Source: Blasia pusilla (lineage: Eukaryota). Taken from it: DNA of 64,000 bases. This document shows positions 12,586-37,539 of the stretch, in pieces. Made by a program: the position numbers and the translations under genes. The notes under the pieces were generated by a model. That model saw only the letters and a program-made list of their open reading frames with translations. It was not told the DNA's origin and did not search any database. Numbering within the stretch: position 1 is the stretch's first letter; each line of letters opens with the position of its first letter. The stretch is from the NCBI GenBank assembly GCA_050084515.1, contig CM114271.1, positions 35,340,001-35,404,000 of the forward strand. The letters run 5' to 3'.

Positions 12586-12597
12586 TGGTATCAGAGC
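12586..12597 (+). promoter_or_regulatory. Primer-binding site complementary to initiator tRNA-Met
   Basis: TGGTATCAGAGC lies 2 nt after the LTR's terminal CA. Confidence 0.95.
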
Positions 12598-12731
12598 TTA
12601 TCCTTGGTGAGCGAGAACTTGGGGTCGTGGGATCAGCCGGACGCTTGGGAAATTTCAAGGTAGCGGCTGACTCGGGCTTTCGAGGAGGGACGCAAGAAAC
12701 GAGGAGGAGATCTGAGTGAGTTGGCTTGGAG

Positions 12732-13800: not shown

Positions 13801-13857
13801 GCATCATCTGTCGGCGATCTTGAGACGTCCCTTCAAGTCACCAAGAGGACGCACAAT

Positions 13858-16330
13858 TTGGTGTACCTAAGATCCAAGATTGCTGATCGCGATGTGTTGT
13901 TGCTCGTGGATACAGGTGCTTCACACTCCTTCCTAAGCCCGAGAATCGTGAAGGAATTGGGGCTATCTACCTCTAAGGCGGACGAGCCCATTCGAGTGGG
14001 ATTTGCAGGAGGCAAGTCTCATCGGACTTCTGATTTGGTCTTGGGTTTGACAGTAGGATGCGGGGTATTCGAGTTGAAGGAGAATTTCACTGTATGCGAA
14101 ATGGACGGCATTGACGGAGTTTTGGGGAATACATTCCTAGATGCGTATGAGGTGGAGTTAAGACGCCGACCATTGAGGTTGAGCGTCTTGCTAAAAGGCA
14201 AACGGTTACAGGTGCGGTTGGTCCGTGAGGTTCCAGCAAAGATGGAGTTGATGAACTCGATCACAAGGAGGAGCATGACTGAGTTGGAGGATGGATTTCT
14301 CTGCTTGATGAGACAAGTGGAAGAGGCTACAAGCAGTATACGCAGAGATCAGGAGGCTGCTTCAAGGGGAATCCCAAAACCACTCCAGGAAGTGGTCAAG
14401 GAGTTTGAGGATGTCTTGACAAATGAGCTTCCGACTGAATTGCCACCGCATAGAGCCGTAGATCATAAGATAGAGATCATACCCGGTTCCCAACCGCCTT
14501 CAAAAGCACCATATAGGTTGAATCAGGAGGAACTTCTTGAGTTAAAAAAGCAGTTAAGTGAGCTCTTGGAAAAGGGTTACATTAGGACTAGCAAGTCACC
14601 TTATGGAGCACCTGTTCTCTTTGTAAAGAAGAAGGATGGAAAGATGAGGCTGTGTGTTGATTACCGTGCACCTTTGAACAAAGTGACGGTTCGAACAATT
14701 ATCCTCTTCAGGATAGATGATCTCTTTGATAGGGCGGCGCGAGATATTTCAATAGGATTGACTTGAAGTCGGATATTAGCAGATTGGGTCACGTGGTCGG
14801 TCTGAGATGGCGTCACCCGACATGGAAAAGGTAAAGCGATTTCGAGTGGGAACCCCATCCACTTTGTAAAGGGATGAGGAGGTTCATAGGTGCGGTGCAA
14901 TTTTATCGTATTTATGTACTTTTCGGGATTGTGAGACCTCTCACGGATTGGACAAACAAAGTTTGCCAACACGACTTGGACCAGGAAGTTAATGAGGCAT
15001 TCAATCGAGTGAAGCGATTCTATCGCAGAACGGTGTTAAAGTGCCGGAGTTTGACAAACCGTTCGAAGTGCATACCGATGCTAGTGATTTTGCGGTTGCA
15101 GGAATGTTGGTGCAAGGAGGGAGACCGGTGGCATATGAGAGCAAGAAGCTTAGCGACACTGAAAGGAGATGGCCTACTCACGAGAAAGAGTTGTTCGCGG
15201 TGGTACATTGCTTGAGGAAGTGGCGGCATTATCTAGGGCTCCACAGGACTCGAGTATTCACCGATAATATATCACTCAAGTATTTTGAGACCCAGGATCG
15301 AGTGACACCGAAAAAACTGCGGTGGCATGATACCTTGGCGCTGATGGATGTAGAGTTGATCCACAAGCCAGGTAAAGATAATGTGATTTCAGATGCGTTA
15401 AGTCGCAAGGAGGAACACATGCCATCGACGACACAGGTCTTGAGAGCAATGTTCCCTAAGGAAACAAATCTGGAGAGAAGGATTCGTGAAGGATATATGA
15501 AGGATGCTCAAGCAGGGGAATACCTAAGGAAGTTGAAGCAGGGTGAGAAGGTGGCCAACATAAGTTTGAGGCACGGTTTACTAAGGTTCAAACAGAGTAG
15601 GATCTATGTAGGGCAAGGCAGAATGCGAACCAAGGTGTTAGCGGAATGTCACGACGGGCCCTTGGAAGGACATAAAGGAGAGAAATCTACGCTAGCTGTT
15701 CTGTCGAAGCGGTTCTTTTGGCCCAACATGAAGGAGGATGTTGCTCAATATGTGAAGACTTGTGTGACCTGCCAAGCGAATAGAGTCTCTTATGATAAGA
15801 AACAGGGCTTGCTGCATCCCTTGCCAATCCCCAAAGGACCCTTGCAAAGTGTGAGTATGGATTTCATCACGAGTCTTCCGAAATCTGGGGGCTACAACGC
15901 TATACTTGTGATTGTTGATCGGTTTAGCAAGTTGGCGAGATTCGTGCCGGCGGTGGATTCGAACGGCGTATCGACGGTGCAACTATTCCTCGATAGCTGG
16001 TGGCGTGCTCATGGTTTGCCGAGGAGCATTGTTTCAGATCGGGATCAAAGTTTACCGGTGCTTTCGGAAGCACTTGTTGAAGGTTTAAGACCAAGCTGAG
16101 TTTCAAGACGGCTTTCCACCCCGATGCGGATGGGCCGGTGAAAAGGTAAACTCTATCGTGAATCGGATGCCTTGAGGAATTATGTCGGTCTTGATCAACG
16201 CGATTGGGTCAGTGGTTGAGCATGGCGGAATCTTTGCTACAACTTTCGACCAAGCATTTGCAATCGGAGAATCTCCGTTTCTCCTGGCAAATGGACGAGA
16301 GCCAAAAGGGCCTCTTGATCTAGCCCTTTC
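13858..16330 (+). pseudogene. Gypsy pol (PR, truncated RT, RNase H, integrase), disrupted
   Basis: [10 protein letters not shown] (PR). [30 protein letters not shown] (RT N-part; I could not find the YxDD core). VHTDASDFAV..EKELFAVVHCL..WRHYL (RH). H..GH..C..C, SMDFI, IVSDRD (IN). Confidence 0.9.
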
Positions 16331-19039
16331 GAAGGGTACTACATTGGCACGAACATGACAAGCGACGGCAGATCCCTGGACTAACCAGGAAGTCTGTTCC
16401 AAGTCTTGAAGGACTTGCCATGTGTTGGGAGCTAGGAACTAAGGAAGGTTGAGCTTGATGAGACGCCGAGTTGAGGACTCGGTGGGTTGGAACGCCGGTT
16501 GGCCAAACCCGACTAATGAGTGTGTGTTTGGGTGCAGATCGGCGATGAGTTCGTGACCTACTGAACGCACGCTTCCGCAACACTAAAGATTGACGTTCAA
16601 GGAGAGTAGGGGCGCGATAGAAATGGACATGTCCACGGACATGCCGTGCAGGTATCCACGGCCGAGCGCATCCCTGAGCCTGTCGCCTAGACCCGGCCAT
16701 GTTGGCCAAGCCCACACTCGTTTTGTGGCCCACATGCAAACTACAGCCAGACCTGTAGGGTGGGCCTGACGATTGCGAGCCAGATGTACCCGGCTTCGGA
16801 CGAAGTTGTCTGTATAGATCAACACAGACATGTGTCCGTCCCTAAGAAGGACACGTACTTTGTAAGTAGGATGCAACCCTTCTTGCATCCTACTCTTGTG
16901 GGATGGGAGCTCTTCTCAAGTCCCGCTTGATGTTTAGTCTTGTATTGTTGAGTGATGGCCTTTATCATTTGAGAAGCCCATCAAGGCTTGCTTCTCACTT
17001 CTGCAACTCATGTCTCTTTTGAGAGACTCCAATACGCTTCCGTCCTGGTGTGAGCCTACTAGAGTTCTAATGTTCTGCGTTGGTGCGTGTTTGGTTATCT
17101 CGTGTCTTTTAGTATAGATCAACAAGTTTATGGTAGAGCATCTTTGACGATAGTGGTGGACAACCTAAAGAGGTCGAGGATGATGTCACGTCTTTTAGGA
17201 TAGATCGGTGAGATCTAGTAGAGCGCCTTCGTGAGTAGTGGATGACATGCCCAGTAGGTTGTGGATGACGTGTTGAGGCCCTGGGAAACCTGAGAGAGCA
17301 GGTTTAGGGTTCCCCTAAACGAAGCGGGAACCTGCTCTCTCAGGTTTCCCTTCGTTTCGGCTCATTTAGAGCCATATTGAGAAACTTACTATTTTAGGTA
17401 AGTACCATTTTGAGTATATGATCGACTTTCTTTTTTTGGTAAGTGGCTCTTGACCTCCTAAATCAGGTCAAGAGCCAAGGAGGTGACTTGGGAGAATAGG
17501 TTACCATGGAGAGAGGTTGGGAGAGGGGAGGGGTATACCTCAAGGAGAGAGAGTTTGAGAGCTCATTCTCTCTTTATTGAACCTGTTGGCATGAGGTGGC
17601 GGAGCTATGGTCCCTTGCCTTGTGAGTGTAACCCAATCCTCTCATTAGGAGAGTGGGCTTGGTTTGACATGAGAGAGAGAGTGCACACCTTTGAGAGCTA
17701 TGGTGTGAGATGGTGTAGAGAGAGATTGGATCTTACTTTACAAAGAGAGAATGAGAGAGTGAGAGAGCTTCATGGGGGAGCTTGCTGGTCACTCGCTGTA
17801 TTTGCAGGATGGGGACCGTGTTCCCCCTTCAACGGCTCATAGGAGTGCTCACCGAGCAAGGGCTGCTTTGATTGTTCTTTGCATTTTCTGATTTTTTGTG
17901 TGGAAGAGTGGCGTGCGGAAGCGCTGCCCAATTTCTGATAGGGATTGATTATGGGGGCGGGTTGCCCCATGCTAGTGCTCTCGGGAGCACCATGTAGCTT
18001 GCTGATTTTTTTTCTTACAGGTTTTACATTTTGGTTTGGAGAAATCAGCGCGGAAGCGCTCCCAAATTTTGTGTAGGAGAAAGAGACATTGGGCTTTACG
18101 ACAGTCCCCTTCAGTTTTTACTGGAATGTCCAATTCCAAATATTTTTTGACGCCGTCGTAGATCGTGAAGCTGTGCACGTTGTGCAACAAACGGTGCACA
18201 ATTTGGACTACGAGCAGAAAGTTATGGCCAATTTTGTAAATTTCCAATTTTAGGGTAAAAATCAAAACCCTAAAGCAGCAGCCGCCGTTGGCGGCGCTGT
18301 CACCGTCGCCGCCAGCCAGGCCATCAACCCGTCGGCCATGCCGTCAACCCTTCCCCAGGATGTCAACCCTTTGCCAAGCCCTTCAACCTGTCAACTGGCC
18401 CATTACCCGTCAAGCTGCCGTCAACCGACTGGAGTACTACTCTGGACGACGTGTGACCCAGTGATGTATGGGGTCCAAGTTTTCTAGCCGCATTTCTATG
18501 TTTTGAGTTGGTAGCCACTCCACAAAGATCGAGTACCGTGACGTGATGCCCGTAGCCGCAACGCGCCGCCAATTTCCGCGCTGTGCCGCTCGTGGCCGCA
18601 CCGCACTGTCTCGATCGCGGAGCCGCACCGTCATTGTGGAGCAGATTGTGTTTTGCTGGTTTGAGGAGTTTGTCTCCATGACCGAGTTGGGGTTGAGATT
18701 TTCAATTGCTGAGGAGCGACATCGACATGTGTTCAGGTTACCCATTGTGGTCCTTTATCCTGCATGCGTGAGGGATTTTGGGATTTGGGTAGTTTATTTG
18801 GGGATATTGGGTTTTGTGGATGCTAAGAGCATCATTTATGTATGTGGTTTAGGGGACATAGACCTATGTGGGATGTCTGGAGTTGAAGGTAGGTTGTCGA
18901 TGAGATGATAGCCTGGTCAATTTGCCGCACCACGCCGCTTGTTGCCGCACGTTACACGTCTCGGGGAGGGAGAGTTTCGAGGGTCTCCACGTGAGAGACC
19001 ACCTCGATCTCCTTCTGTGTCGTCTTCAGACAAGGGGGA

Positions 19040-21500
19040 GCGTGTAGAGGAGTGTGTTAGTGATCTACCGTACACATTGAGTGGTCCTACTAGTTGGGCA
19101 TACGAGATCGACGACCGGGGTAGGGGACCGCGTAGGTTTTCGGGTGCTGTAGGCACCATAGAGCTACACGACTTCATTGCGGAGTTTAGGAGTTGGTGTG
19201 ACTCACAGCGGGCTAGGAACTCTAGAGAGTTCAACCCGTTTCAGCATGGAACGGTATATTCCAACATTTAGAGGGGGCACCCATGGACGATTACCATGAG
19301 TTCTCCCACATATATGCCCAGGAGATTGAGGCATGGCGACTCTACTACGACCCACATTACGTGTCATGGACAGAGCCATTCCCAAATGAGGAGGAGGAGT
19401 AAGGAGAGGCTACTTCATCTTCCACTAGTGATGTGCTAGGAGGGGTGAGTCGGACTGGGGCAGTTGCATCGTCCAGTCGGGTTCGTCCTAGGTTCAACCC
19501 TGTGGTTGAGTTCTTTGCTAAGTTGAGGGTGAGCTACCATGGGGTAGGGACGGAGAAGTTGCGGAGCATCCACGACTTCCAGAGGCGCCTAGGTGAGAGT
19601 TTGCGTGAGGCTTACACTCGCTTCCGCCGGTTGATCAATGTCACTCAGGGGGTGACAGAGGCTCAGGCTATCCAGTCATGGTATGCTGGACCGGACCCTG
19701 CGGACACGGGTGCGGGAAGGGGTGCTTCTTATGAACACCTCCCCTACATTGAGAGATGTTTTTAGAACCGCCGAGAACATTGAGCGCAACATGGCGGATG
19801 AGAGCGTAGCCACCATGGGTTCTGGGCGAGACCAGTCGCGATTTTATGCACCATGTGAGCAGCAAGGTGGACTCCGAGATAGGTCGACTGTGGCACCACG
19901 AGCTCAGGGAGGATACCGGGAGGCCGTGCCAGAGAGACTTGCGCCTTCATATGCGACTCAGCAGCAGCCGCCTACTATTACTTGTTGGTCATGTGGTGGA
20001 GCCCATCATCAATGCGATTGCACTCGTCAGGGTCATGGACGTGTGCCTCAGCATGGAGGAAGAGATGGTGCTGCACTAGGAGGTTATCAGTGTGACTATT
20101 GTCAGAGGTATGGTCATACACGCGCCAGGTGTTTCAGTTTATATCCTGAGTTACGTCCGGACCGAGGGCCAGAGAGGGAACCAGAGGGAGTAGCTGGTCC
20201 GGGTGGGCTAGAGATCATGCTCCAAGTGGTCCCGTTGGGGGACGAGGAGCTGGAGTTGCCCGACACAATGGTGGAGCTGCCCATGGAGGAGGTAAAGTCC
20301 TACCACCTAGACGCGTCGAGGGAGATGTCGGGCGTGAGGCTAGGATGGCTGCTCAGATACATCAGCTACAGGACCAGATTGCCACTATGGCATTGAGATT
20401 ACCCGATGCCGGATCCGTGGCATCGACATCATATGGAGCAGCCAGAGATATGGAGGATCCTGGTTGGATGTGCGGGATTGCCCATATGGATGCAGCCGCA
20501 GTTGTGACGCGTGGAGCAACTGTAGAGTTGGATCCACGGGGGGAAGCCACGAAACAGACTAGGCTTCCTCAGTCTTTCACGTTTTCCGAGGCAATGAGGA
20601 CCCCATTGATGGGTCCTGATCAAAGTTCTGGAGAGTTGGTGATGTTGTTGGTGTGCAGGCACGGAGGGCGATGGGAGAAGCAAGTGCAACGACTCCTATT
20701 GTTGATGCTTAGGAGGGGCATTTGTTGAGCACGTTGTTGGGGGCCGCCACCATTGTGTACCGCGCTCCTTTATTTTCTGCTTCCTATGTTATGACGTTGG
20801 GGGGTCACCCGCCGAGGCTTTTCGGCTGGCCGCTACACTATGTGAGCGTGGAGTTGGAGTTCCTTCATCATGTTCAGAGGTGATTGCAGAGGAGGTGATG
20901 GACGTGCCCTTGAAGCGGATGCTCGGGCCGTCCACGTCAGATTCATGGCAGGCTGCGGCTACTAGGATGGCGGAGATGCCCGCTAGACCCGCGATAGAGC
21001 GTGCCATGGCTTCTCCTGGTGTTGTGTTCTTTGGATGGCGAGGAGAGGTCTTCGAGTTGGTGAGTCCCGGAGGTAGAGCTTTCAGTCCATAGCACGTCTT
21101 GTTGGATTCAGGAGCGCAACCCCTGATGTTGGGGAAAGCGTCATTTAGAGGATTGGGCTTGACGAGAGCCGATGTGGAGCGTTGTCCATTCTGGATGCAG
21201 ACATCCTTGGGTGGAGCAGTATATCACCCGACAGGAGGTCATGGTGAGGATTCGTCCAGGACATCCTACAGATGAGTCCGTGGTGCGAGCCAAGGCGATA
21301 GTGACTGATGCAGAGTCCTACGACGTCTTGGTTGGTGGAGTAGTGTTCTACCCGATGGATTTTTCCTGGATTACTGGGAAGAGTCAGCGTCCTATAGACC
21401 AAGATGGCAGTCATGTGATGGGCGCCTTAGCTCATTATCCGTTCGATTCACATGCGCACTGATCGAGCAATGGCCAGGAGAGATGGTGACCTTAGCAATA
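19040..21500 (+). pseudogene. E1 gag and protease, disrupted
   Basis: RRFSGAVGTIELHDFIAEF.SWCD, two zinc knuckles CWSCGGAHHQCDC and CDYCQRYGHTRARC, and protease VLLDSGAQPLM (~21096). Confidence 0.8.
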
Positions 21501-21806
21501 TTTAGCAATGCCATCACTTGGCCTAGTGATTTTATTGGGGTACATGTCCATGCACAGGATACTCCCGTTCCTCACATTTCTATGGAGAGGAGTGTCATGG
21601 TAGCCGTATCATTCCGTGGAGGAGAGGTGCCGTTGTAGGGCTTGATTGAGGAGGTTCGACGATTGGCAGATGAGCACGTGCAAACCGCGTGGAGCGAGGC
21701 GTTTGCACTAGAGCATGATGGGTCTGAGGAACCTGAGGTAGTAGGGAGTGCTACAATGACACCCTTGGATACCACACCCATTGTGTGGTGTATCCCAGAG
21801 GAGGGT

Positions 21807-23769
21807 ATTCGAGTGTTAGATCTCTTTGGAGGGATTAGCACCTAGTTAGCTGTTGTTTTGCAGGTAGGAGTGCAAGTATAGCTCGTATGAGGGTGAGTGC
21901 TTGGCTGCGGTGTGGGCTGTCGCGCATTTCAGATGTTACTTATTAGGCAATCCCTTTACCATCCTCATTGATCATCAACCACTGAAGTGGTTGATGGAGT
22001 CCGACAAGCTTACAGGGAAGCTTGCGAAATGGGCTCTGTTCTTGCAGGAGTATGATTTTCAGGTGGTACATAGACTTGGGATGCTCAACCAGGATGCATA
22101 TGGGTTGAGTCGTAACCCATGTTCGAGTCAGCGAGATGCAACTGGAGCTCGATGGCATGGAGAGAGTGATGAGGAGTTAGTGCCAGGATGGCACGCGTCA
22201 GCCTATTTAGGCATGTTGGCTATGGAGAGCCAGAGTGTGGAGACTTCGATGGCGAGGTCTAGTAGAGAGTCCTTGGATCCCGAGGCCAGTGAGGAGACGA
22301 CAGATGGCCGAGATATTCATGATGATGGAGTAGTGCGAGCGAGCACCGTGAGTGCTAGAGAGCGGGATCAGATCCTACAACGGGCCACACGATTCCGTTG
22401 GGAGGGGACACATGTTTTGAGGGTTTGGGAGGATGGCAGAGTACGCATAGTGCCGCATCCTTTGTAGAGAGCACGACTAGTGCAGCATGCCCATGAGGAG
22501 TTGGGTCACTTTGGGGTGAAGCGGACGTACAGCTTGCTCTAGATTCAGTATTGGTGGCGAGGCATATAGACTGACGTTCAGCAGTTTGTTGCTAGGTGCA
22601 TGGTGTGTGATCGGGTCCGAGCATCGTTCAATGCTCCGACTCCACAGTTGCATCCATTATTGATCATGGGCTTAGGGTATAGATGGATTTTGGATTTTGC
22701 AGGACCTTTGCCTTTGACGGAGCGTCACAGTCGTTATGTGTTGGTGATGATCGAGCACTTCTCGAAGTGGATCGAGTTGGTTGCATTGCCTAACAAAGCG
22801 AGTGAGGGAGTAGCTTATGCCTTCCTTGAGAGAGTGCTGAGTCATTATGGCGCATCGGTTGAGGTGTTGACAGTCCAGGGTACTGAGTTTTGCGGTGAGT
22901 TCCAGGCCTTGTGTGATCAGGCGTCGATCGACCATCGCACGACTTCGAGAGATCATCTCGAGGCGGATGGATTAGCGGAGAGAGTTATGTAGACGGTGAA
23001 GAGGGGTTTATGTAATTATGGCTTGCAGAGAGGTCACCTAGGAGATTGGGACCTACAGTTGCCCTGGTTGGCGATGGGATACAGATTCAGTAGGCAGACA
23101 TCCTTAGCATCTTTTTCACCGTACTTGCTACTTTATGGCCAAGAGCCAGATTTACCTACGGCCATTCATCGAGATGTTGGTGAGGTGCTGGACCATGATG
23201 ACCCAAATGTATGGATGCGAGCATGTTCTCAGAGGGCTGAGTTGTTTCAGAGATTGATGCCCATGGCGTTCGAGAACTTGGCGATTGCGCATCTATGAGA
23301 TACGTTGAGGTATGCGACTATTCGGGGTGGTGATTATCGACCAACTATCCGGAGGTTTCATCAGGGAGATTATGTCTACTTGTAGCAGACGGCACCGACG
23401 ACTTTGGATGTAAGAGCAGGGCGCACTATCCTGAGAGTGCGTGGCGTTTTGCCATCCGGTGTCCTCTTGCTGGAGGGACGCGATGGTATGGTATGGAAGG
23501 ACCATGTGCGTAATTATGCGCCATGTCACCTTCCTAACATTGATGGTACAGTAGATCCGAGCTTAGTAGTAGTTTCTGCAGGCTTGCATTGTATGTTGTG
23601 TGGTTCTGCCCATGGTGCGGCCACGATGCTAGTCTATGATGGATGTTCGAGAGGTTGGCATATGGCATGTCTGACGCCACCTCTCACTAGGATTCCCCAG
23701 GGACGATGGATGTCCCAAATGTACATAGAGGAGATACTAGGTAGGTTTCGATTCCGACTTTTTTTGTGA
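21807..23769 (+). pseudogene. E1 pol remnant: DNMT motif I joined by deletion to RNase H C-part, integrase and PHD finger
   Basis: IRVLDLFGGIST* is followed directly by YSSYEGECLAAVWAVAHFRCYL. IN: HEELGHFG..CMVC, LDFAGPLP, DGLAER. PHD: CMLC..YDGCSRGWHMACL.PPL...P.GRW. Confidence 0.85.
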
Positions 23770-26700
23770 CATGGATGACAGGAAGGCGACTAACGATGGG
23801 GCCACATGAGCACCCGACCTTCTTGCTCTTAGCGCCCCAGAGATGTATGTCATGGTAGGTAGGGATAGATGGCTATCTGGAGTTAGAGGGACCTAACCAC
23901 CAGCTAAGGGGGCGATTGGAGATATTTTAGCACTTCTTTTCTCGTTATTTGGATGTCATGAGTTAGCATGGGATCGTTTGTGTTTGTGTGTGTGTTCGGT
24001 GACAACAATGTATGTTGTGTAGCGATGTGTATGCGCACGACATCTATCACGTCTTATAGGATAGATCGGTGAGATCTAGTAGAGCGCCTTCATGAATAGT
24101 GGAAGACACGCCCAGTAGGTTGAGGATGACCTGCTGAGGCCCCGGGAAACCTGAGAGAGTAGGTTTCCCCTTCGTTTTGGCTCATTTGGAGCCACATTGA
24201 GAAACTTACTATTTGAGGTAAGTATCATTTTGAGTATATGATCGACTTTCTATTTTTGGTAAGTGGCCCTTGACCTCCTACATCAGGTCAAGAGCCAAGG
24301 AGGTGACTTGGGAGAATAGGTTATTATGGAGAGAGCTTGGGAGAGAGGAGGGGTATACCTCAAGGAGAGAGAGCTTGAGAGCTCATTCTCTCTTTGTTGA
24401 ACCTGTTGGCATGAGGCGGCGGAGTTATGGTCCCTTGCCTTGTGAATGTAACCCGAGCCTCTCATTAGGAGAGTGGGCTTGGTTTAACATGAGAGAGAAT
24501 GCACACCTTTGAGAGCTATGGTGTGAGATGGTGTAGAGAGAGATTGGATCTTACTTTAATTGGAGATATTTTAGTACTTCTGTGTCGTGTGTGTTTGTGT
24601 GTGTGTTTGGTGACAGCGATGTATGTTGTGTAGCGATGTGTATGCGCACGACAGTGATCTGCTAAGGCCTCGGGTAACCTAAGAAAGCATGACATCAATA
24701 TTTTTGCAACCCACCAAAATTCCCATTGAGAGCTTCACTTAGTTTCTCGACAGAAAATAAATTGGTTTGTTTTATGAGGTAGTGTTGTCATTGAGTTCAA
24801 TTTTTGCAATGGAAGCTCTCGATTGTTTCCAAAACATATTGACCTTTTCAAATCCATTTTGGAAATGTCTGAATTCAACCGGCCAACTCTATAAAGAAAC
24901 ATGATTATCTCCTATTTTTATCAACTTAAACAAAACATAACTTTATTATTAAGGAAAGATAGTTTTTGATTTGCAAACACCCATTTTTTTGACACATGGA
25001 AATGGGGCAGCAAGAATATGTTTAAATATCACATGGAATAAGAAATGAATTTTTGGATAGTATGATTATTAGTTTTGTGCAAAGCATCTATAGGAGTGTC
25101 AAGTGAGACACTATGATAAAAAAAAAAAAGAGGGGGTTTAGGGTTTAGCGCATGGGGGCTGCTCGACTTGCCCACGGAACATGCGATAGGTTGGATCTTT
25201 AAGACTCAACCCTAAGACTTCTATGTGCAAGACTCGAGATTGGGATCTATTCTCGGGTAAGTGAGAAAGAGTAGAGTTTGAACTCTACAACGTAGTAGTA
25301 TAGATGGAAATTTACAATTGAAAAATGAGATTAGAAATTGCATCTATTAAAAAATCCTCCTTAACTACGAAATATTGAACAATCATGGAGGACACTTCAT
25401 TCCCATATATGATGTATATGTTTAGGCGATGGATTTACCCTATCCAACAGCCATCAGAAACCAATTATGTTTCAAGTAAGCTCTAGCCCCAAACTTTCCA
25501 ATCCTATTTTTTACTTCATTTTTGGAATTCTCCCTCTTCATGGTTGCACAAAAATGGACAAGTAAGTCCTTGGGATAGACACGAACAGACAAATTTGGAC
25601 ATGTCCACGAATATGGATTGCAAGAGGTGGGGTCCACATTTATATCTTATGATGGAAGGTAGGCCAAAGGCGAGTGGGGTAATAAGGGGGGGAGGGAGTG
25701 GAGGTGGAGGAAGGAAGAAGCGGGAAAGTATGGAACATGAAGGAAAATGGAGGGAATGAGAAAGAAGGGGAAGATGGGATCGACATGGACAAGTCCTTCT
25801 ATAGCACGAACGTAAATCTACGGATACGGATATGTCTGCGCACCCGGACTTTGTCCATATTCAATCTTGTCCCTCTTTGACTACTTGACATAATTTCACA
25901 AAACTCAACCATTTGGTACATCTCAAACTTGGGACTTCATTTAAATATTTAGTTGGGATCACATGAATGTTTCAAATTATCCATTTTGTAGATAGGTAGA
26001 TAGTTTGTTTCTTTGTTTCTTTCTTTGTTTATGTAAAAGTCATATTTTTAGATTTTATTTTTACTTTCACTATTCATTTTTCTTGATGATAAATCTTTCA
26101 TTTTCATAACATATCCATACATACCATGTAAAAATTTTCAACCGAAATGGTCATGGTGGTAGTAGGCTACTAGGCTTTCATATTTCACAAAGGAGAATTA
26201 GATTTATAGCCATTAGAATTCAAGATAAACTTTTTTGGTTCTCTTTCAACTACAAAGTGATCATGAATCTTTAGATATGTCCCAAATTTGGATGGATGAT
26301 AATGACTTGTCCGTTTTTGTGCAACCATGCACATGGCATGACCATACAATTTTCAAGAACTTGGAATGATTATGGTCATGATAGTATTAGGAATATCATA
26401 CTTCATAAATTAGAGATAGACTTGACATTTAATTTCGAGGAAAAGACCATTTTTTGGACTTTCAAGATGTCACATCTGAGTAGCCGATAGGCCGAGATCT
26501 ATCGTGGATAGGGCGTAGGAGCCAGCGGACTATCTTGAGTGTAACTTTGTCCCACGGTGTCGGATGAGGTTGAGGATAGGTCCATTGTGTCAGGAACGTC
26601 GTTTCTGACAACTTTCATGTTGAGGTCTTTTACATCCGGGTGACTTGTTGACCAGGTCACCCGCCCTTGGTAACCTGTGAGCGTAGGTTACCAAGGGAAG

Positions 26701-27914
26701 GGCTATTTTTAGGGGAAGAGCCTTTTGGCTCTTCCCAACCCTATATAAGAGAGGAAGATGGCTTTCCTAAGCCATCTTTCTCATGTTGGGCCGTTGGAGC
26801 ACCTCCCTTGTATGTGTGTGAGCTAGGACTAGGGTGCTAGCGTCCGGATTCCTTGATAGCACAGGGTGGACGAGGCTCGATATGGCGATGTAGATAGAGG
26901 AGTGGAGTTTTAGGCCGAGTGTGCCGTTTTTACTACTCTTTATTTTTACATGAGAAAGATGTCAGGGGGTTGGTGGGAATTCGTTGTTTGCAGGTAGGCA
27001 AGCAAGTTGCCTTGGTCGGGAGCCCCTGGAGACGTGTGTGTGACGTTTTGTGTGTCATTTTCTGTTCGGAAGGCCGTGGGCGGAAGCGCTGTCCGTTTTT
27101 CTCAGATTTTGTTGGTGCGATTGATGGGGGACAGCAGCAGGGTGTAGCGCAGGTTGTGTCGGCAGGAGTAACGTCGTCTTATAACTCGTGGAATGTCGGG
27201 AGTACCCAAGGAGAAGAGTTAGAGCTTGCAGCCGCCAGGGAGCTGTCAAGTAAAGCGGCTGGTCTAGGGTTTAGCCGGGGCGGCGACAGGCGGCGCGGCG
27301 GGAAACAAAGCGGTGACGGCGCCCCCTCCTCCCCTTCCCCCATTTATTTCCCTCCCCAAAAGTTGGGGAGGCCCATAGGGGTGTGGGCCAGGGCGTTGCG
27401 AGAGTTGACGATGGTGGGGCAGTGTGCATGATGCCGACGGGTGGTCCGCATCTGTTGACGGGAGGATCGACGTGTTGGTCGAGGGGAGTGTTGTGTTGCG
27501 GAGATTGTCATCTACGCAACATGTGTTGTGTTGCGGAGGTTGCCGAGCAGGGGTCGCGTGTATGACCCGAGAGAGTGTCGCTAGGTTGAGCGTGCGTGAG
27601 GCCGGGTATGTCATCACGGGATTGATGTTAGCATAGGTGAGCTAGTGAGGCATGTGGGAGACTCTCGGTGAGTGTGAGTGCTTGAGCGGGTGAGACAGGG
27701 TTTGTCATCACGGCGTTCTTCAGGGTTGAAGAATGGGGTAGTCGAGTAGTGGTAGTGGTGTGACACGGGTGGAGTGAGATACTGAGGGGTTACTAGTGAG
27801 GAGCTCCTCGACATCCATCCGTGATTGGATTGTCATCGACACCGGAGTGCAGTGACGAGATCACGACAAAACGATAGTACTTGGCAGGAGATGGACGACA
27901 TGGGCCATTGAGGC

Positions 27915-30260
27915 ATGCGGCGTTTCTCGGGTGCAGTGGGCACCATCGACTTAGATGATTTCATCCAGGAGTTCAACACATGGTGCGACTTCCAGGAGAT
28001 ACGGACCCCGACACGGTTCAACCCTTTCATGGCATGGAAGGGTTGTTCCAAAGACTTGGAGGGTCCCAGATGGATGACTACATGGAGTTTCGATCACTAT
28101 ATTCAGTAGAGATTGATGCTTGGAGGATGTATTGGGCTCTAGGGTATGTGTCCACTAGTGGTCGCGAGGCATATGATGGGATTGTGAGAGGAGAGAGACC
28201 CACACCATCAGCCCGGAGACTAGATGGAGAGGAGGGCAGTGAGACAGGCAATGTGGCAGAGACCTCTGGTGGTAGAGGGCCACCTAGCTTCAGCCCCATG
28301 TTGGAGTTCTTCCGACAGTTGGAGAAGAGCTACCGGGCGTGCATTGAAACACAAGCTGAAGAGTCTACATGATTTTCAGCGGACGATCGGGGAGAGTCGA
28401 GAGAGGCATTCACACGCATGAGGAGGCTGATCATTGCTACGTTTGGAGTGATTGAGACGCAGTCAGTCCAGTATTGGTACGGGATTATGGACCGAGAACT
28501 ACAGAGGAGAGTCCAAGATGCGATGATGATTCACACAGTGAAGCCCACATTGAAGGTGGTCTTTGAGTTGTCTGAGCGTATTGAGCTCAACATGAGTGAG
28601 GAGCAGGTAGTGACCGCTGGATTTTTCGAGAGTCGACGGGTCCACGGCGACCGTGACCCCACAGTGCCCAAAGCAAGCACCGATACCACCATGGGAGCGG
28701 GCGGTGTGCCTAGAGAGCGGGCGGTACCGTGAGCCTATGAGGCAACGACCCGCACCTACATATGTTGCCCAGCACGGACCGATGTGGTCTTGTTGGATGT
28801 GTGGAGGGACCCATAGGCAGAGAGACTGCCCACAGCATGGGAGAGGACCACCATCGCCTCCAATTGCTCAGGAGCCACAGAGGATGGCCCCACCACAGCA
28901 CCACTGTGACCATTGCCACAGATATGGTCACACTAGGGATAGATGTTTTGACCTTCGTCGAGGGGCACGCCCAAAGGTAGGCCGAGGGCCTGGGGCGGCC
29001 GCCCCTGGAGGAGGTTGGGGAGTTCTTCTGGACATGGTGGTAGAGGACCACCACCAGCCGAGGAGGAGATAGAGCAGAGCACCGAGTCGGCACTTCTCTC
29101 ACGCATCGATCGGTTGAGCGGAGGATTGCTGCCATGACGATGATGCGGCTTAGGAAGGCACGGAGTGTGAGCGGCTAGTGTGACTCGATCTCTACCTCTT
29201 ACCCTAACCCGGGTGAGATCTCTCAAAGTATGGGATTTATGTGTAGTGCAGCCAGGTTGAGGCGGTATAGTGGTGACTCGGGGTCTTTGCGAGAGGCATC
29301 AAGCCATCGAGAGGTGGAGTTGAGATTGACCCACCAGAGGGGACCGATGGGCGGCGAGCCAGGGTTCCACGATCGTTCACATTGTCGGAGGCACTACACA
29401 CACCATCGATGGTGCCTCGGCGACCAGCGGTGCCTCGATTGGGCACCTCGTCGGCGTCACGAGGAGTTGGAGTGACAACTCCTATCTTTGGCTCGAGTGG
29501 AGTCGGTGTCGACCATAGTGTTGGAGGTGGCCACCGAGTGAGTCGACTCCGCTATTTTCCGCCATAGAGTTGGCGGCGTTGGGAATTGGACCAAGCGAGG
29601 TGTTTGGTTGGCCGCCACGTTGTGTGGCGTGGAGAGATGGCGCTTCTTGTTTAGAGGTAGTTGAGGAGGTGGTGGACTTGCCCTCAGAGCGGTGCTTGGG
29701 GCGTTCCCACGAGTCATGGCATCTGGCGGCGGAAAAGTTGGTAGATATGCTAGCTCGACCGGCCATAGAGCGGCAAGTGGTGACACTGGAGTAGTATTCT
29801 TTGGATAACCGAGCTAGAGTATTTCGCTTGGTTAGTCCGACGGGGATAGTATACCACCCGCAGCGCGTCCTACTTGATTTGGGAGCGCAACCCTTGATGT
29901 TAGGGAAGGCGGCATGCTTAGTGTTGGGGTTACGGAAGGCCGACATTGAGCCTTGTCCCTTCCAGATACAGACCTCGATTGGGGGCGTATCACCCACTCA
30001 ATATATGACTCGATAGGAGATTGTTGTCAGAATCCAGCCAGAGCATGCGACGGATAGTGTTATGGTGCGCACACATGCGATTACGACACCATCTGAGTCG
30101 TACGATGTGTTGGTGGGGAGTACCGTGTTATATCCCCTAGGATTCATCCTTGACTTCTGGGAGGAGACCGTTGCCTATCAGCTGGGATGGCGGTCAAGTG
30201 ACAGCCGGATGAGTCAGTTACCCGTGCAGTTTGCGAGATGAGGTGGTCGATCACGAGGCG
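27915..30260 (+). pseudogene. E2 gag and protease, disrupted
   Basis: RRFSGAVGTIDLDDFIQEFNTWCD, knuckles CWMCGGTHRQRDC and CDHCHRYGHTRDRC, and protease VLLDLGAQPLM. Homologous to E1. Confidence 0.8.
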
Positions 30261-30613
30261 AGTCTGTGACCACGTTGGCAGCTTTCACACGTAGTGTTAG
30301 CTGGCCAGGAGAGTTGTTGGAGGGGAACGCACATGCGGAGGATGTCCCAGTAGCGGAGGATGTCCCAGTAGCGGATAGTCCCACGGAGAGACAGGCCATG
30401 GCGGGTGTCTCTTCCCATGTTGGCGAGGCCTCTTCACCATTGTGGGGTACGACTCGGGAGCTACAGAGGAGTGTCGAAGACCTCGTGAGGCAAGCGTGGA
30501 GTCATGTTTTTATCCCAAAGCCGCGAGAGTCATGTGGCGATCGGGCTCTTGGAGTGGAGAGGATGACCCCACTAGATACCACACCTGTTGTGTGGCAGTG
30601 CCCAGAGGAGGGT

Positions 30614-31560
30614 GTTAGGGTGTTAGATCTCTTCGGAGGGATTAGCACCGGATTGGCTGCACTATTGCAGGCGGGCATACGGGTGCATCAGTACCTTTAT
30701 GTGGAGAGAGATGAGACCGCGCGGCGAGTATCATTACATCACATGGCGAGATTGGTCCAGAGGTATACTGAGTTGTTGTCGGTATCTGCAGTACGGGGAT
30801 ACCAGCATAGGCTACCCGCCGACATCTCTTTGGTGGGGGCGCAGGATCTGGATAGAGTTGGCACCATTCATTTGGTGATTGCTCGATGGCCATGTCAGGG
30901 TCATTCATCAGCTGGCTGAGGATTTGGATTGCAGGATCCGAGGTCAGGGATGTTTTGGGAGATGATGCGAGTAGTACGACACTTGCACGAGAGTCAGATA
31001 TTTTCTCCAACATACATTTTGGAGAACGTGCCATTGTTGGGAGACACTCGTGCACGTGTGATGACCAGTGTACATCAGGTGAGGTCCTGGTTGGGACCTG
31101 CTGTGCTGTTAGATGCAGCGAGAGTTGGGTCACGTGCCCATCGTCCACGACTGTGGTGGACAAACTTGATACCATCAGAAGTACTAAGTCGAGCATACAA
31201 TGGAGTCCAGAGAGCACCACATCTTACAGTGTATGCTATTTTGGGCTCAGGGCGTCGATCTCACGTGGTGACACGGGATGATAGACCACCGTTGGCCATG
31301 GCCAATAGGGTGGGGGAATTGAGGGCAGCCTTACCTACGTTGGTGAGCTTCCCAGCATCCCATGCCTTTTGTCAGGGAGGGCCAGGCATGATTTGGGATG
31401 AGGTGTCCGGAGCATTGGAGGAGCCTACAGCACATGAGCGTGAGCGCGCCATGGGGTTCACTACCGGTACTACGGCGGTGCCAGGGATGACTGAGGCATC
31501 ACGGAGACAAGTGTTGGGGCAGGCGATGGACCTCAACTGTCTCACATGGATAGTCAGCCT
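30614..31560 (+). pseudogene. C5 cytosine DNA methyltransferase domain (DNMT3-like) within retroelement pol, one in-frame TGA
   Basis: Motif I VLDLFGGI, II YVE, IV WPCQGHS, VI ILENV, VIII AHRPRLWWTN, IX ERERAMGF, X LGQAM. ORFs 30266-30919 and 30929-31822 are in the same frame, separated by TGA at 30917-30919. Confidence 0.9.
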
Positions 31561-31864
31561 AGGTATGGTGAGCGAGAGACGGATACGAGTGTCATCCATG
31601 CCGTCACGCCCACGAAGTTGGACCATTGCCTATGAGGTATGTCTGAGGCATTGGTGGGGCGAGACGAGGAGAGATAGGCACCCATGGACTTCCTGGGACG
31701 TCGTTCGAGCAGAGAGTGCGAAGGCGGCTAGAGTAGCACATGTTCATTTTTCGGATGTGGAGCATGGTGTAGGAGGTCACAGTGGAGTGGTTGTTGCAGA
31801 GGTGGCTAGGGTTGCTACATAGCAACCAAAGCCAAAGGTTGCGTCCTCTCCGAGTGAGGTCACG

Positions 31865-34800
31865 ATGGAGACTTGGGAGCCTGTGATAGGTCTCAAGTTG
31901 ATAGGAGGAGAGCGACGGCAAGTTCATAGGTTTCTGAGAGGGCATGTCAGTTGTTTTGCCTTCAGTATGAGAGACTTGGGTACGCTGAAGGGTCCCGGGA
32001 TACGGATTGAGTTGGCTAGTGATACGTCGATCTTTTGTCGACCCTCAGTATTCGATATGGAGCGAGCCTTGATTGAGCGAGGAGTCGAGGACTTGTTGGA
32101 GGCAGGACTTGTGGAGTTATCACATGGGGAGTATGCATCTGCCACAATCATGCCGGCGAAGAAGGATATGTATGGCAATTGGACAGATAGGCGGATGTGT
32201 GGAGATTACCGTCCTATCAACCGACAGACGAGGTCAGATCGGTATGCCATGCCTACTCCTGAGGAGATCTTTGATGCGGTAGGGCATGCAAAGATCTTGA
32301 TAGATTTTTAGATCTCCGTGTTGGCTATCATCGACTTCCTATCAAGGTTGGAGGACAGGGAGAAGACGAGCATTTTGGGGATAGATCCGTTCGGGAGAGA
32401 TTGCTTGTATTAGTGCGGTTCTTACCATTTGGGTTGAAGAACGCGCTGCAGAGTTTCAGAGAGTGATGGATAGGATTAGGTGGCTTGGATTTTGTACAAT
32501 GTTACATAGATGATATTCTTATCTTGATTCCACGGTTGAGGAGCATGAGCGACACTTGGAGGAGGTGTTTGGCGATTGCGATTACATGGACTGAAGTTAC
32601 ATCCAGCAAGTGCAGATTCTTTTCAGGAGCAGATTGAGTACTTGGGACACACCATATACCCGAGTGGGTTAGGCGTTCAACAGGCGAAGGTAGAGGCTAT
32701 TGCAGATTCCACGCCCTAGAGATGTGAGTCGAGTCCGAGCATTTCTTGGACCGGCAAACTTCTATCGACGGTATGTCAAGGGTTTTAGTGTGTGATCGCA
32801 AAGTCTTTGACCTTGTCGCGAGACTTGATCAGGTTTGGTTGTGGGGAGATGATCGGGAGCGAGCATTTCAGAGCTCAGGACAGGTTGGCGTCCTCACCCA
32901 TTTTCTGAGAGACCGGTTAGGGTCGCCCATTCGATTACATACAGTTGGAGCATGTTGGGTCTAGGAGCAGTGCTTACTCAGAGGGATAACGAGGAGAGGG
33001 AGTTCGTTGTGGCTTACGCGAGCCGATTGAACAACATTGAGAGGCGAAGTACAGCTCCTACGAGGGAGAGTGCTTGGTTGCAGTGTGGGTCGTGGCACAT
33101 TTTAGGTGCTATTTATTCGGCAACCCTTTCACACTTATCACTGATCATCAGCCGTTGAGGTGGTTGATGGAGTCCGACAAGCTTACGGGAAAGCTTGCCA
33201 GGTGGGCTCTATTACTACAGGAGTATGAATTTGAGGTGGTTAATAGGCCAGGTTGGCTGAACCAAGATGCGGATGGGTTGAGTCGTAACCCATGTCCAAG
33301 TCAGAGAGACGACACAAGAGCTCGATGGCACGGAGAGAGTGATGAGGAGATGGTGCCCGGTTGGCATGCATCTGCCTATCTTTGTTGGTTGACTATGGCA
33401 GGTCAGCCACAGGTGATGACTCCAGTGGTGGGGTTGGATGATGAGTCTTTAGATCCGGAGGTTAGTGAGGAGGCGACAGGTGGTCGTGATATCCATGACG
33501 ACGTGGAGGTTGTGGAGTTCTTGCGCACTGGCGTCATTGCGAGTACAATGAGTGCTAGGGAGCGGGATCGGATCCTACAGAGAGCCAAGAGGTTCAGGTG
33601 GGAGGGGACTCACATTTTGCGGGTATGGGGAGATGGTAGGATACGAGTGGTACCTCATCCTTCCCAGCGAGCATGTGTAGTGCGACATGCCCATGAGGAG
33701 TTGGGACATTTTGGAGTAAAGCGTACTTACAGCTTACTCTAGGTTCAGTATTGGTGGCACGGCATGCATACTAGGGTACAGTAGTTTGTGGCCACATGTA
33801 TGGTATGTGACAGAGTGTGAGCATCCTTCAATGCTCCCACTCCGTAGTTACATCCTTTGCCGATTATGGGTTTAGGTTATCGGTGGAGTTTAGACTTTGC
33901 GGGACCTTTGCCATTGACAAGGCGTCATCATAGGTACGTGTTGGTCATGGTGGAACATTTCTCCAAGTGGATAGAGTTGGTGGCACTACCGAGACAAAGC
34001 GCGAGCGAGGCGGCTTATGCGTTTCTAGATCGTGTGCTTAGTCACTTTGGTGCACCGGCGGAGGTGTTGACTGACCAGGGTACCGAGTTCAGGGGAGAGT
34101 TTCAAGCCTTGTGTGATCATGGGCTCCACGTCCAGAGATCATCCTCAGGCGGATGGGTTGGCGGAGAGAGTGGTACATATGGTGAAGAGAGGATTGCGCA
34201 AGTATGGCTTGCAGCGGGGACAGTTGAGGGAGTGGGACCTACAATTGCCATGGTTGGCTATGGGTTATCGCTTTAGTCGGCAGGCATCCTTGGCGTCATT
34301 TTCACCGTACTTTTTTCTCTTTGGGAGAGAGCCAGATTGCAGCCATTCGACGTGACATGGCGGAGGTGTTAGATCTTGATGATCCATATGTGTGGGTCCA
34401 AGCATGTTCTCAGAGGGCAGAAGTTTTTCGTAGAGTTATGCCTATGGCCTTTGAGAACTTAGCTATTGCCCAGCATAGAGATACATTGAGGTATGCGACC
34501 ATTCGTGGAGGAGGTTATCGTCCAGGGATTAGGAGGTTTTATCCTGGAGATTACGTGTATTTACAGCAAGCGGCACCCACGATGCTAGATGTCACTGCAG
34601 GGCGCACAATCCTACATGTGCGCGAGGTATTACCGACCGGAGTCCTCATGTTGGAGGGACGGGATGGTATGGTTTGGAAGGATCATGTGTGCAATTGTGC
34701 GCCATGTCATCTTCCGAACGTAGATGGGACGGTGGATTCGAGCTTGGCAGTGGTACCTGCAGGCTTGAGGTGTATGTTGTCCGGATCTGCGAGGGGTGCA

Positions 34801-34911
34801 ACCACCATGTTGGTATGTGATGGTTGTTCTCGAGGGTGGCATATGTCATGTCTGATCCCTCCTCTTGATGTGGTTCCCACGGGACGATGGATGTGTCCGA
34901 GATGTGTATAG
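31865..34911 (+). pseudogene. E2 RT-RNase H-integrase-PHD, disrupted
   Basis: RRMCGDYRPIN, LPFGLKN, CYIDDIL (RT). VVAYASR, WVVAHFRCYL, TDHQPL (RH). HEELGHFG..CMVC, LDFAGPLP, TDQGTEF, HPQADGLAER (DDE IN). PHD CML..CDGCSRGWHMSCL.PPL..VP.GRWMCPRC at 34771-34908. Confidence 0.9.
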
Positions 34912-37539
34912 GATAGTAGGTCATGTCAGAGAGATGTGATATTTTCTATCTGGAGTTGGGGGATCAAGCGCCAACTAGGGGCGGTTGTGTGATCTCCATG
35001 TATATGCATGAGTTGATTTTTGTACATGTGTGGATCGACCCGTGTCTGGGGAAGATCGATGTTGTGTGGTGTAGATTTGACGAGCGATGTATGTTGTGTA
35101 GCGATATGTTTGCGCACGACAGCTGTCACATCTGAGTAGCCGATAGGCCGAGATCTATCGTGGATAGGGCGTAGGAGCCAGCGGACTATCTTGAGTGTAA
35201 CTTTGTCCCACGGTGTCGGATGAGGTTGAGGATAGTCCATTGTGTCAGGAACGTCGTTTCTGACGACTTTCATGTTGAGGTCTTTTACAGCCGGGTGACT
35301 TGTTGACCAAGTCACCCGCCCTTGGTAACATGTGAGCGTAGGTTACCAAGGGAAGGGTTATTTTTAGGGGAAGAGCCTTTTGGCTCTTCCCAACCCTATA
35401 TAAGAGAGGAAGATGGCTTTCCTAAGCCATCTTTCTCATGTTGGGCCGTTGGAGCACCTCCCTTGTATGTGTGTGAGCTAGGACTAGGGTGCTAGCGTCC
35501 GGATTCCTTGATAGCACAGGGTGAACGAGGCTCGATATGCCGATGTAGATTGAGGAGTTTAGTTTTAGGCCGGGTGTGCCATTTTTACTACTCTTTATTT
35601 TTGTTGTGTGATCTCCATGTATATATATGAGTTGATTTTTGTACATGTGTGGATCGACTCGTGTGTGGGGGAAGATCGGTGTTGTGTGGTGTAGATGTGA
35701 CGAGCGATGTATGTTGTGTAGCGATATGTATGCGCACGACAAAGAGCAAAGTGAAATAAACCCATTGAATGAGTCACGAACTTGGGAGGTTTGTTACAAG
35801 GGTCATTTTCAACACTCTAGATTCTTCACCTTTGGTTTCGATATTAATATAATGATACAAATATTTTAATTGCATTTTCACATCTCATTTTTCCCTTAAG
35901 AAAAACCCAACACATTCATGGCATGCCCCTACGTCCCCTCTATTACTCACACCAAATTTTTCAATTGTAATGAGAGGAATTTTAAAGTTCACAAAAGGGA
36001 GCGAGACTATTGACATTTTACTTTGAATTTAGAATTTTTAATTGTCTTGGGCATCTTTATATAATTGTGAGGAGATTCTCCACTTTCAATTTCAACATAA
36101 ATGACTTATATCTTGAAATTTGAGGTAAATTTTCCATAGTTATTTGGTTCCGTTTTCACAACTCATTTCTCTCAAAAAATGAACTATGAGGTCCCATGCC
36201 TTGCTTATATAGAACTTTCAGTATTTTGGTAATCCTAATGGCCATTATGAGTTATTGTCATATTATCAATACACATCAAAATCAATGATGGGATTTATCC
36301 TGAATTTGTGATACAAAAGTGATATTCCTACAAATGAAAAATTGGACATCTTCCAGAATAGTGATAGAAAGGTCAGGTTAATCGCCCTATCATGAATGAG
36401 GTGGTGTATTACAAATGTCGAGTTATAGCCCACGCTATGCACAGGTGAAAGATATCAATGTTACGACTTTAACATCTGTTAAACACTACACTTGTCAACA
36501 CTAGAGGAAGCAAAAATAGATCCATGTCAACACTAGAAGAAGGGGTCTTCAAACCACATCCTTTTTTGATTATATAAATTCCTAAGCCCGTAAGTCACTC
36601 GTTCACTCCGTTATGGAGACGACTGAAAGCTCGAATTCTGTGATATCTATTCCACTTTGGACATCACTGAAAACTTGAACCTTTGCCATCCAGTGACTTC
36701 TTGTTCTCCCCTCCCTTTGTGCATGCCAGGTACAAATTCTTCTTGTGCGGTATTAGAGTTCTTCTCTGGAATCTCTGTAAAGCTAGTAATCACACGCCCA
36801 AATGGAGTATCCACATCTGCAAAGGTGGGAATGGAGAATAGAGAGAACTAATCTCCAGGATGTACCAACCTGATAGGCAAGAATTATTGAATGAACCCAC
36901 GAAAGAAGTACCTAAAATTTGCAATGGTGGCAAGTGAAGACTGCTCTCTCGATGATATCAAGGTGCAACGAGAACTATTGAGTTCATCGATTGAGTATTG
37001 GGTATCCAGAGTCCACATTGGTATGAAGGGAGAATCACTGATTGCATAAGCAAGACAGATAACTACAGATAACTTTCCAGCAACAATCTCTGGTAGGAAT
37101 CATCCTCTGGTTTCTGATATAGAAGACATTCAACAAATGGATTTGATCTGCTGTGGAGATCAAATGTGGAATCCATTTGGAAAGGAAGAACATACAAACA
37201 ACATACTCTGTGCGAGGGGAAGCTCGCAACTCAAGCTCAGTACTAGCTGGGAAACCGAATGGATGACTGAAGTGCATGAGATCGGGCAACACGGGTAGCA
37301 TGATAAAGTGCGTGTTAACAGCTCACTTCATTCCCAAGAGTACTTCAGGGTCCATTCAATTCCTTATCTAGCCTTGGTGATAAAGCCAGGTAAGCATTAT
37401 CTAAGGATCTAGACCTAGTGACATGTTGCAAACATTTCAGTGGATATGTTTGACTGATGAGAAGCTTTCCCCACTGAAGAGAAGACTGAACTCTTGTTCT
37501 ATCCTTCAACTTTGCACTGATAGTTTTGAAGAGTAGTGT

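Follow-up and report, generated by a model that had tools for sequence, protein, structure and literature searches.

Probable self-priming of two methyltransferase-bearing Ty3/gypsy-type retrotransposons with DIRS-like repeats in Blasia pusilla

Coding content and repeat order of E2 and E1

The window (the whole stretch of DNA that was analysed, 64,000 nucleotides) contains two retroelements, E1 and E2, whose features are collected in Table 1. E2 is a broken Ty3/gypsy-type element with an RNase H, a DDE integrase, a PHD finger and a C5-DNA-methyltransferase domain, the last of which was scored on a translation that reads through one stop as X. The order along its Pol (reverse transcriptase starting at 31823, RNase H at 33041, then H2C2, and rve at 33848) is that of Ty3/gypsy elements, and its ends, TGTC...GACA with a duplicated AAGA, are also those expected of this group. 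Pfam found no Phage_integrase match, and hence no tyrosine recombinase, in the 30 open reading frame pieces of E2. A DIRS element is recognized by a tyrosine recombinase without a DDE integrase, whereas both rve and Integrase_H2C2 are present in E2. No chromodomain was found by Pfam in these pieces, and a PHD finger occupies the C-terminus of the integrase.

In E1, methylase residues 6-139 run straight into RNase H (21477-21868), and most of the methyltransferase and the reverse transcriptase are missing; E1 is an internally deleted, non-autonomous copy. E1 and E2 are both Ty3/gypsy-type retrotransposons with a cytosine methyltransferase.

The best protein relatives of the E2 methylase region were hypothetical proteins of Marchantia polymorpha with PF00145, at 53-57% identity, and a further protein relative of E2 came from Sphagnum fallax (40% identity). 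One intact relative (P0031, 2358 residues) holds PR, DNA_methylase, RVT_1, RNase H, rve and PHD in a single protein, and it matched the structure of Ty3 Gag-Pol (7q5b) at 3.5e-101. A C5 DNA methyltransferase domain that scores above the PF00145 cut-off within a gypsy-type Pol makes E2 similar to KnitGypsy-Dnmt3 of Klebsormidium nitens (de Mendoza et al. 2018), a likeness that we draw from the published description of that element as a gypsy-type Pol with a C5 DNA methyltransferase (PMC5890265). KnitGypsy-Dnmt3 is from Klebsormidium, whereas the best protein relatives of E2 are from the two species named above.

The repeats of E2 are arranged in the order A-coding-B-A-B, and the direct repeats of E1 follow the same order. 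Thus, E2 does not have two equal LTRs; its 5' end consists of A only and its 3' end of B-nn-A-B. The outer ends of E2 are TGTC...GACA, with AAGA flanking each side; E1 has ATGA before it and GTGA after it. In both elements A ends at the proposed primer site described below, and B starts right after a conserved purine tract (CTAGGGGCG in E2, AAGGGGGCG in E1). At the joint between A2 and B2 the last base of A meets the first base of B with nothing gained or lost, again in E2 and in E1. The joint between B1 and A2 (35108-35137) reads GACA-GC-TGTC in E2, a perfect 10-nt palindrome that resembles a two-LTR circle junction with a 2-nt spacer. The corresponding joint of E1 (24029-24058) reads GACA-TC-TATC.

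This order is not usual for an integrase element. DIRS, Ngaro and PAT share the order A1...B1-A2-B2 with E2 and E1, and in all of them the B1-A2 joint mirrors the joined ends of the element. However, DIRS, Ngaro and PAT have a tyrosine recombinase, whereas E2 and E1 have a DDE integrase and TG...CA ends, and E2 has a 4-bp target duplication. The same combination has been printed for KnitGypsy-Dnmt3, whose repeats are given in a figure legend (Fig. 4) as those of a DIRS retrotransposon (A-coding-B-A-B), alongside Gypsy domains (PMC5890265). In the main text of the paper 'self-prim', 'PBS', 'primer binding' and 'circular' have 0 occurrences each, and neither a priming mechanism nor an account of the layout is given.

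Table 1. Features of E2 and E1, with the evidence for each; presumed and proposed functions are predictions
Feature	Position	Strand	Evidence or remark
E1 element, whole	17184-24653	+	Layout A1...B1-nn-A2-B2 as in E2; broken copy
E1 A1 repeat	17184..17740	+	86.5% identity to 24047-24558
E1 CTCATTCTCTCTTT, proposed self-primer	17562..17575	+	Exact complement of 17742-17755; 28 nt past TATA-like GTATACC
E1 CAAAGAGAGAATGAG, proposed primer binding site, abuts E1 A1	17741..17755	+	Complementarity, shuffles, fold
E1 3' end: B1 23915-24042, spacer TC, A2 24045-24558, B2 24559-24653	23915..24653	+	Direct repeats
Target-site duplication AAGA of E2, left	26464..26467	.	Directly ahead of TGTC at 26468; repeated at 35742-35745
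E2 element, whole	26468-35741	+	Repeats and ends; broken copy
E2 A1, 5' repeat, begins TGTCAC	26468..26947	+	97.3% identity to 35124-35602
Presumed TATA box TATATAAG	26742..26749	+	Sequence; 31 nt ahead of 26773
14-bp hairpin, upstream arm in U3	26752..26765	+	Other arm 26770-26783, overlaps self-primer; -22.4 kcal/mol, z -3.93, 0/200 shuffles as good
Proposed self-primer CATCTTTCTCATGT, putative first 14 nt of transcript	26773..26786	+	Exact complement of 26948-26961; RNA 5' end putative
Proposed primer binding site ACATGAGAAAGATG, abuts A1	26948..26961	+	Complementarity, shuffles, fold
C5 DNA methyltransferase region of Pol, one in-frame stop	30242..31822	+	PF00145 E 7.2e-08, 32.7 bits, cut-off 22
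RNase H, integrase zinc domain and DDE integrase core, in pieces	33041..34276	+	RT_RNaseH 9.2e-19, Integrase_H2C2 0.0011, rve 2.2e-14 (Pfam)
PHD finger, integrase C-terminus	34783..34905	+	PF00628 6.4e-10
Purine-rich tract CTAGGGGCG, presumed plus-strand primer	34975..34983	+	Ends exactly at B1 start; E1 counterpart AAGGGGGCG
E2 B1 repeat, ends ...CGACA	34984..35121	+	94.2% identity to 35603-35741
GC spacer, B1 end to A2 start	35122..35123	+	GACA-GC-TGTC palindrome; E1 has TC here
E2 A2, 3' copy of A, with the same hairpin and 14-mer (35428-35441)	35124..35602	+	Direct repeats, fold
E2 B2, second B copy, right end of E2 (...GACA)	35603..35741	+	Base-exact joint to A2 end; RNA reads cross from A to B
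Target-site duplication AAGA of E2, right	35742..35745	.	Matches left copy

Complementary segments at the boundary of the 5' repeat

The first 14 nt past A1 of E2 (ACATGAGAAAGATG, 26948-26961) are the exact reverse complement of CATCTTTCTCATGT (26773-26786) inside the repeat. An earlier note on this DNA had pointed out this complement, which we found to be real and correctly placed in all its coordinates; it begins at offset 0 past A1 (26468-26947). When at most one mismatch was allowed, ACATGAGAAAGATG was found in only three places in the 64-kb window: at the site itself (26948-26961, plus strand), at its target (26773-26786, minus strand) and at 35428-35441 (minus strand), which is the same target as found in the 3' repeat copy A2. 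Three matches compare with 0.05 expected by chance, and none of 100 shuffles gave three or more. Additionally, we compared the first 16 nt past A1 with dinucleotide-shuffled A1 sequences (n=2000); the longest complement in the shuffles was 10 nt, compared with 14 nt in E2. The presumed TATA box TATATAAG starts at 26742, and the distance from there to the start of the target at 26773 is 31 nt.

E1 provides a second case. Its complement of 14 nt compares with a longest match of 11 nt in 2000 shuffles. The A2 copy of E1 reads ...TTTG, and the G that it has kept lengthens the match from 14 to 15 nt, includes position 17741 and brings the match flush with the repeat boundary. The duplexes of E1 and E2, each of them paired throughout, differ at 9 of 14 positions when they are put in register from the 5' end of the target and at 8 of 14 when they are aligned at the boundary. 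The repeats in which they lie have little in common: at E<=1e-3 blastn did not align the A repeat of E1 to that of E2, and the match between their B repeats was limited to the last 45 nt. Protein identity between the two elements is 74-77% in RNase H, integrase and PHD, but only 39-42% in gag. The earlier note had read the complement in E2 as a sign of self-priming of the Tf1 type and had named covariation of the two sites across family members as a check. Between E1 and E2 the sites do covary, in a comparison of two elements only (n=2), both of them broken copies. Recurrence of this arrangement in the diverged E1, where the sequence is another, lends the self-priming reading strong and independent support.

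The same note had stated that E2 has no TGG-type primer binding site, and we agree; the earliest TGG past A1 is at 26971, 24 nt downstream. There is no TGG-type site beside A1 in either element (the first TGG is at +24 in E2 and at +33 in E1, in unlike contexts), and we found no other candidate primer site adjoining A1. A neighbouring gypsy element has TGGTATCAGAGC 4 nt past its 5' repeat, which we take to be the usual plant site for the initiator-Met tRNA. Because the neighbour has this sequence, a tRNA-type site looks ordinary for this genome, and neither E1 nor E2 has one. The neighbour (12435-16617) is a different Ty3/gypsy element in which Pfam recognized gag, an aspartic protease, RNase H, H2C2 and a partial rve. 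Its repeat pieces are 98-100% identical, and the copies differ by about 100 nt in length; it looks young but truncated. There are no tRNA genes in the window. A search of 26400-27400 against Rfam returned nothing at gathering score, and two matches below it were rejected, FsrA with 22.8 bits (gathering score 80) and VEGF IRES with 16 bits (gathering score 160).

We also considered whether the 14-mer past A1 might bind a host tRNA half or another small host RNA, so that the match inside the repeat would be secondary. ATGAG is present in each of the two proposed sites and would pair with CUCAU, an anticodon-loop motif that is presumably tRNA-Met-like. However, ATGAG lies at opposite ends of the E1 and E2 sites. 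The two sites differ in sequence, each is perfect to its own repeat over 14-15 nt at the same distance from the TATA box, and neither a tRNA nor an Rfam match turned up in the region. Thus, although half-tRNA primers occur in plant copia lineages (PMC6317226), we believe that this explanation is extremely unlikely for E1 and E2.

Proposed self-priming, predicted folding and RNA reads

Self-priming has been established for Tf1, in which RNase H cuts the element's RNA and its first 11 bases then serve as the primer (PMC7175516). Tj1 and others have been inferred to self-prime likewise (PMC4600332), and self-priming has been predicted for 12% of the plant LTR elements surveyed (PMC6317226). E1 and E2 resemble Tf1/Tf2 of Schizosaccharomyces pombe and Tj1 of S. 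japonicus in that a site just past the 5' repeat complements the start of the element's own transcript (in E1 and E2, a predicted start), that there is no tRNA-type site, and that a stem-loop is predicted just ahead of the site (PMC7175516, PMC4600332; our own folds for E1 and E2). They differ in the length of the complement, which is 11 nt in Tf1 and 14-15 nt in E2 and E1, and in their repeats, as Tf1-type elements have two equal LTRs and E2 and E1 have A...B-A-B. In addition, the Tf1 integrase ends in a chromodomain, whereas the integrase of E2 ends in a PHD finger and the Pol of E2 carries a DNA methyltransferase. Among plants, the Tcn1 clade (Ty3/gypsy) and TAR (Ty1/copia) of Neumann et al. 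(2019) are LTR elements like E1 and E2 that have no tRNA site and a site that complements their own repeat (PMC6317226). The main text of that paper has 0 occurrences of Marchantia, Klebsormidium, PHD or methyltransferase, and in the main text, at least, a family of the E1/E2 type seems to be left out.

We propose that E2 and E1 start minus-strand DNA synthesis by self-priming as Tf1 does; this is the best reading of the data and one that we consider likely. According to this proposal, the E2 transcript would begin at 26773 or close by, about 30 nt past the TATA box, and its first 14 nt would fold back on the complementary 14 nt right after the 5' repeat (26948-26961). RNase H would cut the RNA behind the duplex, and the freed 3' end would be extended through the repeat, which would make the repeat end exactly at 26947. 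We read 26948-26961 as the self-primer binding site because the complement adjoins the repeat without a gap in E2 and E1 alike, and this is the boundary that a minus-strand primer defines. What we observed is the complementarity, its exact abutment on the repeat, its recurrence in E1 with another sequence, the lack of a tRNA-type site, and sense transcripts over the joint between A1 and the primer site. From these observations we infer the transcription start, the RNase H cut and priming itself, the start being placed near 26773 by its distance from the TATA box (31 nt in E2 and 28 nt in E1). The self-priming reading of the earlier note is therefore strengthened by the repetition of the arrangement in E1 with another sequence and by leaders that are predicted to fold onto the duplex, whereas its start near 26773 still depends on the TATA distance.

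The folding predictions are as follows. When the leader RNA was taken from the proposed start to just past the site, it closed on the duplex between its 5' end and the site in both elements, in the minimum-energy structure as well as in the centroid. For the E2 RNA starting at 26773, pair probabilities were 0.94-1.00 for 9 of the 14 pairs, and for E1 they were 0.97-0.99 for 12 of 14. The fold energies of the whole leaders were unexceptional, with z -1.80 (13 of 200 shuffles equally good) and z -1.63 (11 of 200). E2 also has a hairpin in U3 whose downstream arm overlaps the proposed self-primer. In E2 RNA begun at 26750 the 14-mer pairs within this hairpin and no longer with the site. These folds suggest that a transcript begun no later than about 26752 would have its 14-mer paired with the hairpin arm rather than with the primer site. 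Because the hairpin displaces the duplex in RNA from 26750, the self-priming model needs a start between the two hairpin arms, and the TATA distance predicts such a start. It is only an idea, but in the 3' copy, where the RNA would contain both arms, the hairpin could mask the 14-mer and leave priming to the 5' end of the RNA alone. We rejected conservation of the hairpin, which is strong in E2 alone and weak in E1 A1 (z -2.12), in E1 A2 (z -0.68) and in the isolated A-like fragment near 10.7 kb described below (z -0.88).

The leaders of E1 and E2 are otherwise diverged, and a 12-mer, GCGGAAGCGCTG or a close variant of it, is found once in that of E2 (27080-27091) and twice in that of E1 (17918-17929 and about 18050). 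This 12-mer may be a packaging or dimerisation signal.

RNA reads were taken from three runs with the same species label, of which 6-12% each was read, and were mapped to 26400-27300 at a likeness of at least 90%; 119, 110 and 123 reads mapped. Most of these were only 90-99% alike, and thus the mapped reads come from copies of the family and not from E2 itself. Their orientation was mostly single, with the first mate on the minus strand, which, as in most stranded libraries, corresponds mainly to plus-sense RNA. The reads cover the whole of A. Some reach it from B1, with the loose end ...GCGCACGACAGC in 21, 11 and 12 reads of the three runs. Past the end of A, reads go on into the primer site and the leader, at depths of 3.5, 7 and 9.3, and 9, 7 and 6 reads go on into B instead. 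Because reads cross both the A/leader and the A/B joints, we conclude that the E2/E1-type family is transcribed and that some transcripts extend beyond A2 into B2. The reads that run from A into B also mean that not all transcripts end within A2. B is GU-rich and could serve as a downstream polyadenylation element; B2 may be such an element that only the 3' A receives.

The reads did not mark a transcription start at the proposed position. Only two piles were seen, a start pile at 26579 and an end pile at 26747; at 26773, where depth was at most 31 and reads from the 3' A mask the site, there was no pile. Nor was there a clear step in depth at 26773, with the 3' copy of A covering the same bases. 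Among 40 of the 147 variant rows none fell within either 14-mer and the flanks varied, which is weak evidence that the 14-mers are kept. The differences among family copies in 26400-27300 were mainly C>T and G>A, which make up 65 of the 104 variant places from run X20 and 25 of the 45 from DNA contigs. Such an excess would be expected from deamination of methylated cytosines in a silenced repeat family.

An alternative with which the missing start pile would agree is that the complementarity is a long-range RNA stem that closes R-U5 and acts, for example, in packaging, dimerisation, translation control or assistance to strand transfer. Priming would then occur elsewhere, for example at the 3' end of the RNA, as has been suggested for DIRS-1. 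The reads that run from A2 into B2 fit this explanation as well, since transcripts then reach past A2; A-coding-B-A-B is the layout printed for DIRS-type elements (PMC5890265), and the primer of DIRS-1 is unknown (PMC7192593). However, the duplex begins at the very first base past the repeat in both elements. A structural stem has no reason to respect this boundary, whereas a primer defines it. Moreover, no other candidate primer site was found beside A1, and the elements encode a DDE integrase, with no tyrosine recombinase found. We believe that a stem of this kind is unlikely and that self-priming is the better explanation.

Repeat layout and a possible circle model

Self-priming by itself is a known mechanism and would not be surprising. 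What is new is a self-primed LTR element, as we read it, within a methyltransferase-bearing gypsy family. In the papers searched, only one of which mentions KnitGypsy (PMC5890265), we found nothing on the replication mechanism or the priming of methyltransferase-carrying gypsy elements with DIRS-like repeats.

To account for the layout we propose, tentatively, that the LTR defined by reverse transcription is B + 2 nt + A, bounded by the purine tract and the self-primer site, with the integrase signals GACA-nn-TGTC lying inside it, and that the cDNA ends are joined and then cut at these signals. We regard this model as possible rather than probable. Joining of the linear cDNA end to end would produce an exact A/B joint, seen as A2/B2. 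Cutting by the DDE integrase at the internal palindrome GACA-nn-TGTC would then produce A-coding-B-A-B together with a 4-bp target duplication, and the integrated copy would be a permutation of the B + 2 nt + A unit. The sequence of A2/B2 looks as if the two ends of a linear cDNA had been joined. The boundaries (the end of A at the primer site, the start of B at the purine tract and the exact A2/B2 joint) fit the circle model of the earlier note; this is consistency and not proof. We also considered linear models for B2, in which priming occurs at the 3' end of the RNA or a long primer comes from the 3' copy. These were set aside by reasoning, as they leave unexplained why A ends at the primer site and why B starts at the purine tract.

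If the circle model is true, an obligatory circular or concatemeric cDNA explains DIRS-like repeats in an integrase element. A minus-strand site at the end of A and a plus-strand tract at the start of B would give the first concrete, testable U3/R/U5 map of A/B repeats. An integrase element with recombinase-type repeats has been a puzzle, and in this form the puzzle becomes open to bench experiments.

Palindromes at functional joints, such as GACA-GC-TGTC, raise the question of whether the inverted match at A1 might act on DNA, in the joining or cutting of circular cDNA, and not as an RNA primer site, or might be a chance inverted repeat. Chance is excluded by the shuffles in both E2 and E1. 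As to a role in DNA, integration uses the outer ends of the element, where A starts and B ends, and thus no DNA cut is needed at the end of A1. We consider either possibility very unlikely, and we continue to read the match as the binding site of a self-primer.

Searches for relatives outside the window used several probes. A metagenome scan with the leader motif common to E1 and E2 gave 13 loci, which were rejected; none was similar by blastn or tblastn at E<=1e-3. These 13 loci are GC-rich (0.58-0.61), and 11 of the 13 share one bacterial-looking gene, as judged by eye. A scan of genome contigs with a 19-mer from B gave a single locus (L014) with no similarity, which we take as a chance match. 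Among viral contigs, the RNase H piece of E2 gave 14 pattern matches with 0 relatives, and an alignment of 17 DNMT proteins gave 23 matches including one locus (L015). This was rejected because it is a phage contig whose methylase is of the bacterial type and is accompanied by Vsr and a tail protein.

Further repeats lie elsewhere in the window. An isolated A-like fragment (10467-10900) has about 68% identity to the A repeat of E2 over 153 nt and has kept a target-like TTATCTTTCTCATAT; its TATA box is decayed, and no B or internal part follows it. An AT-rich stretch at 52316-53676 contains several dispersed direct repeats of two families, of 166 nt and 127 nt, with 62-81% identity.
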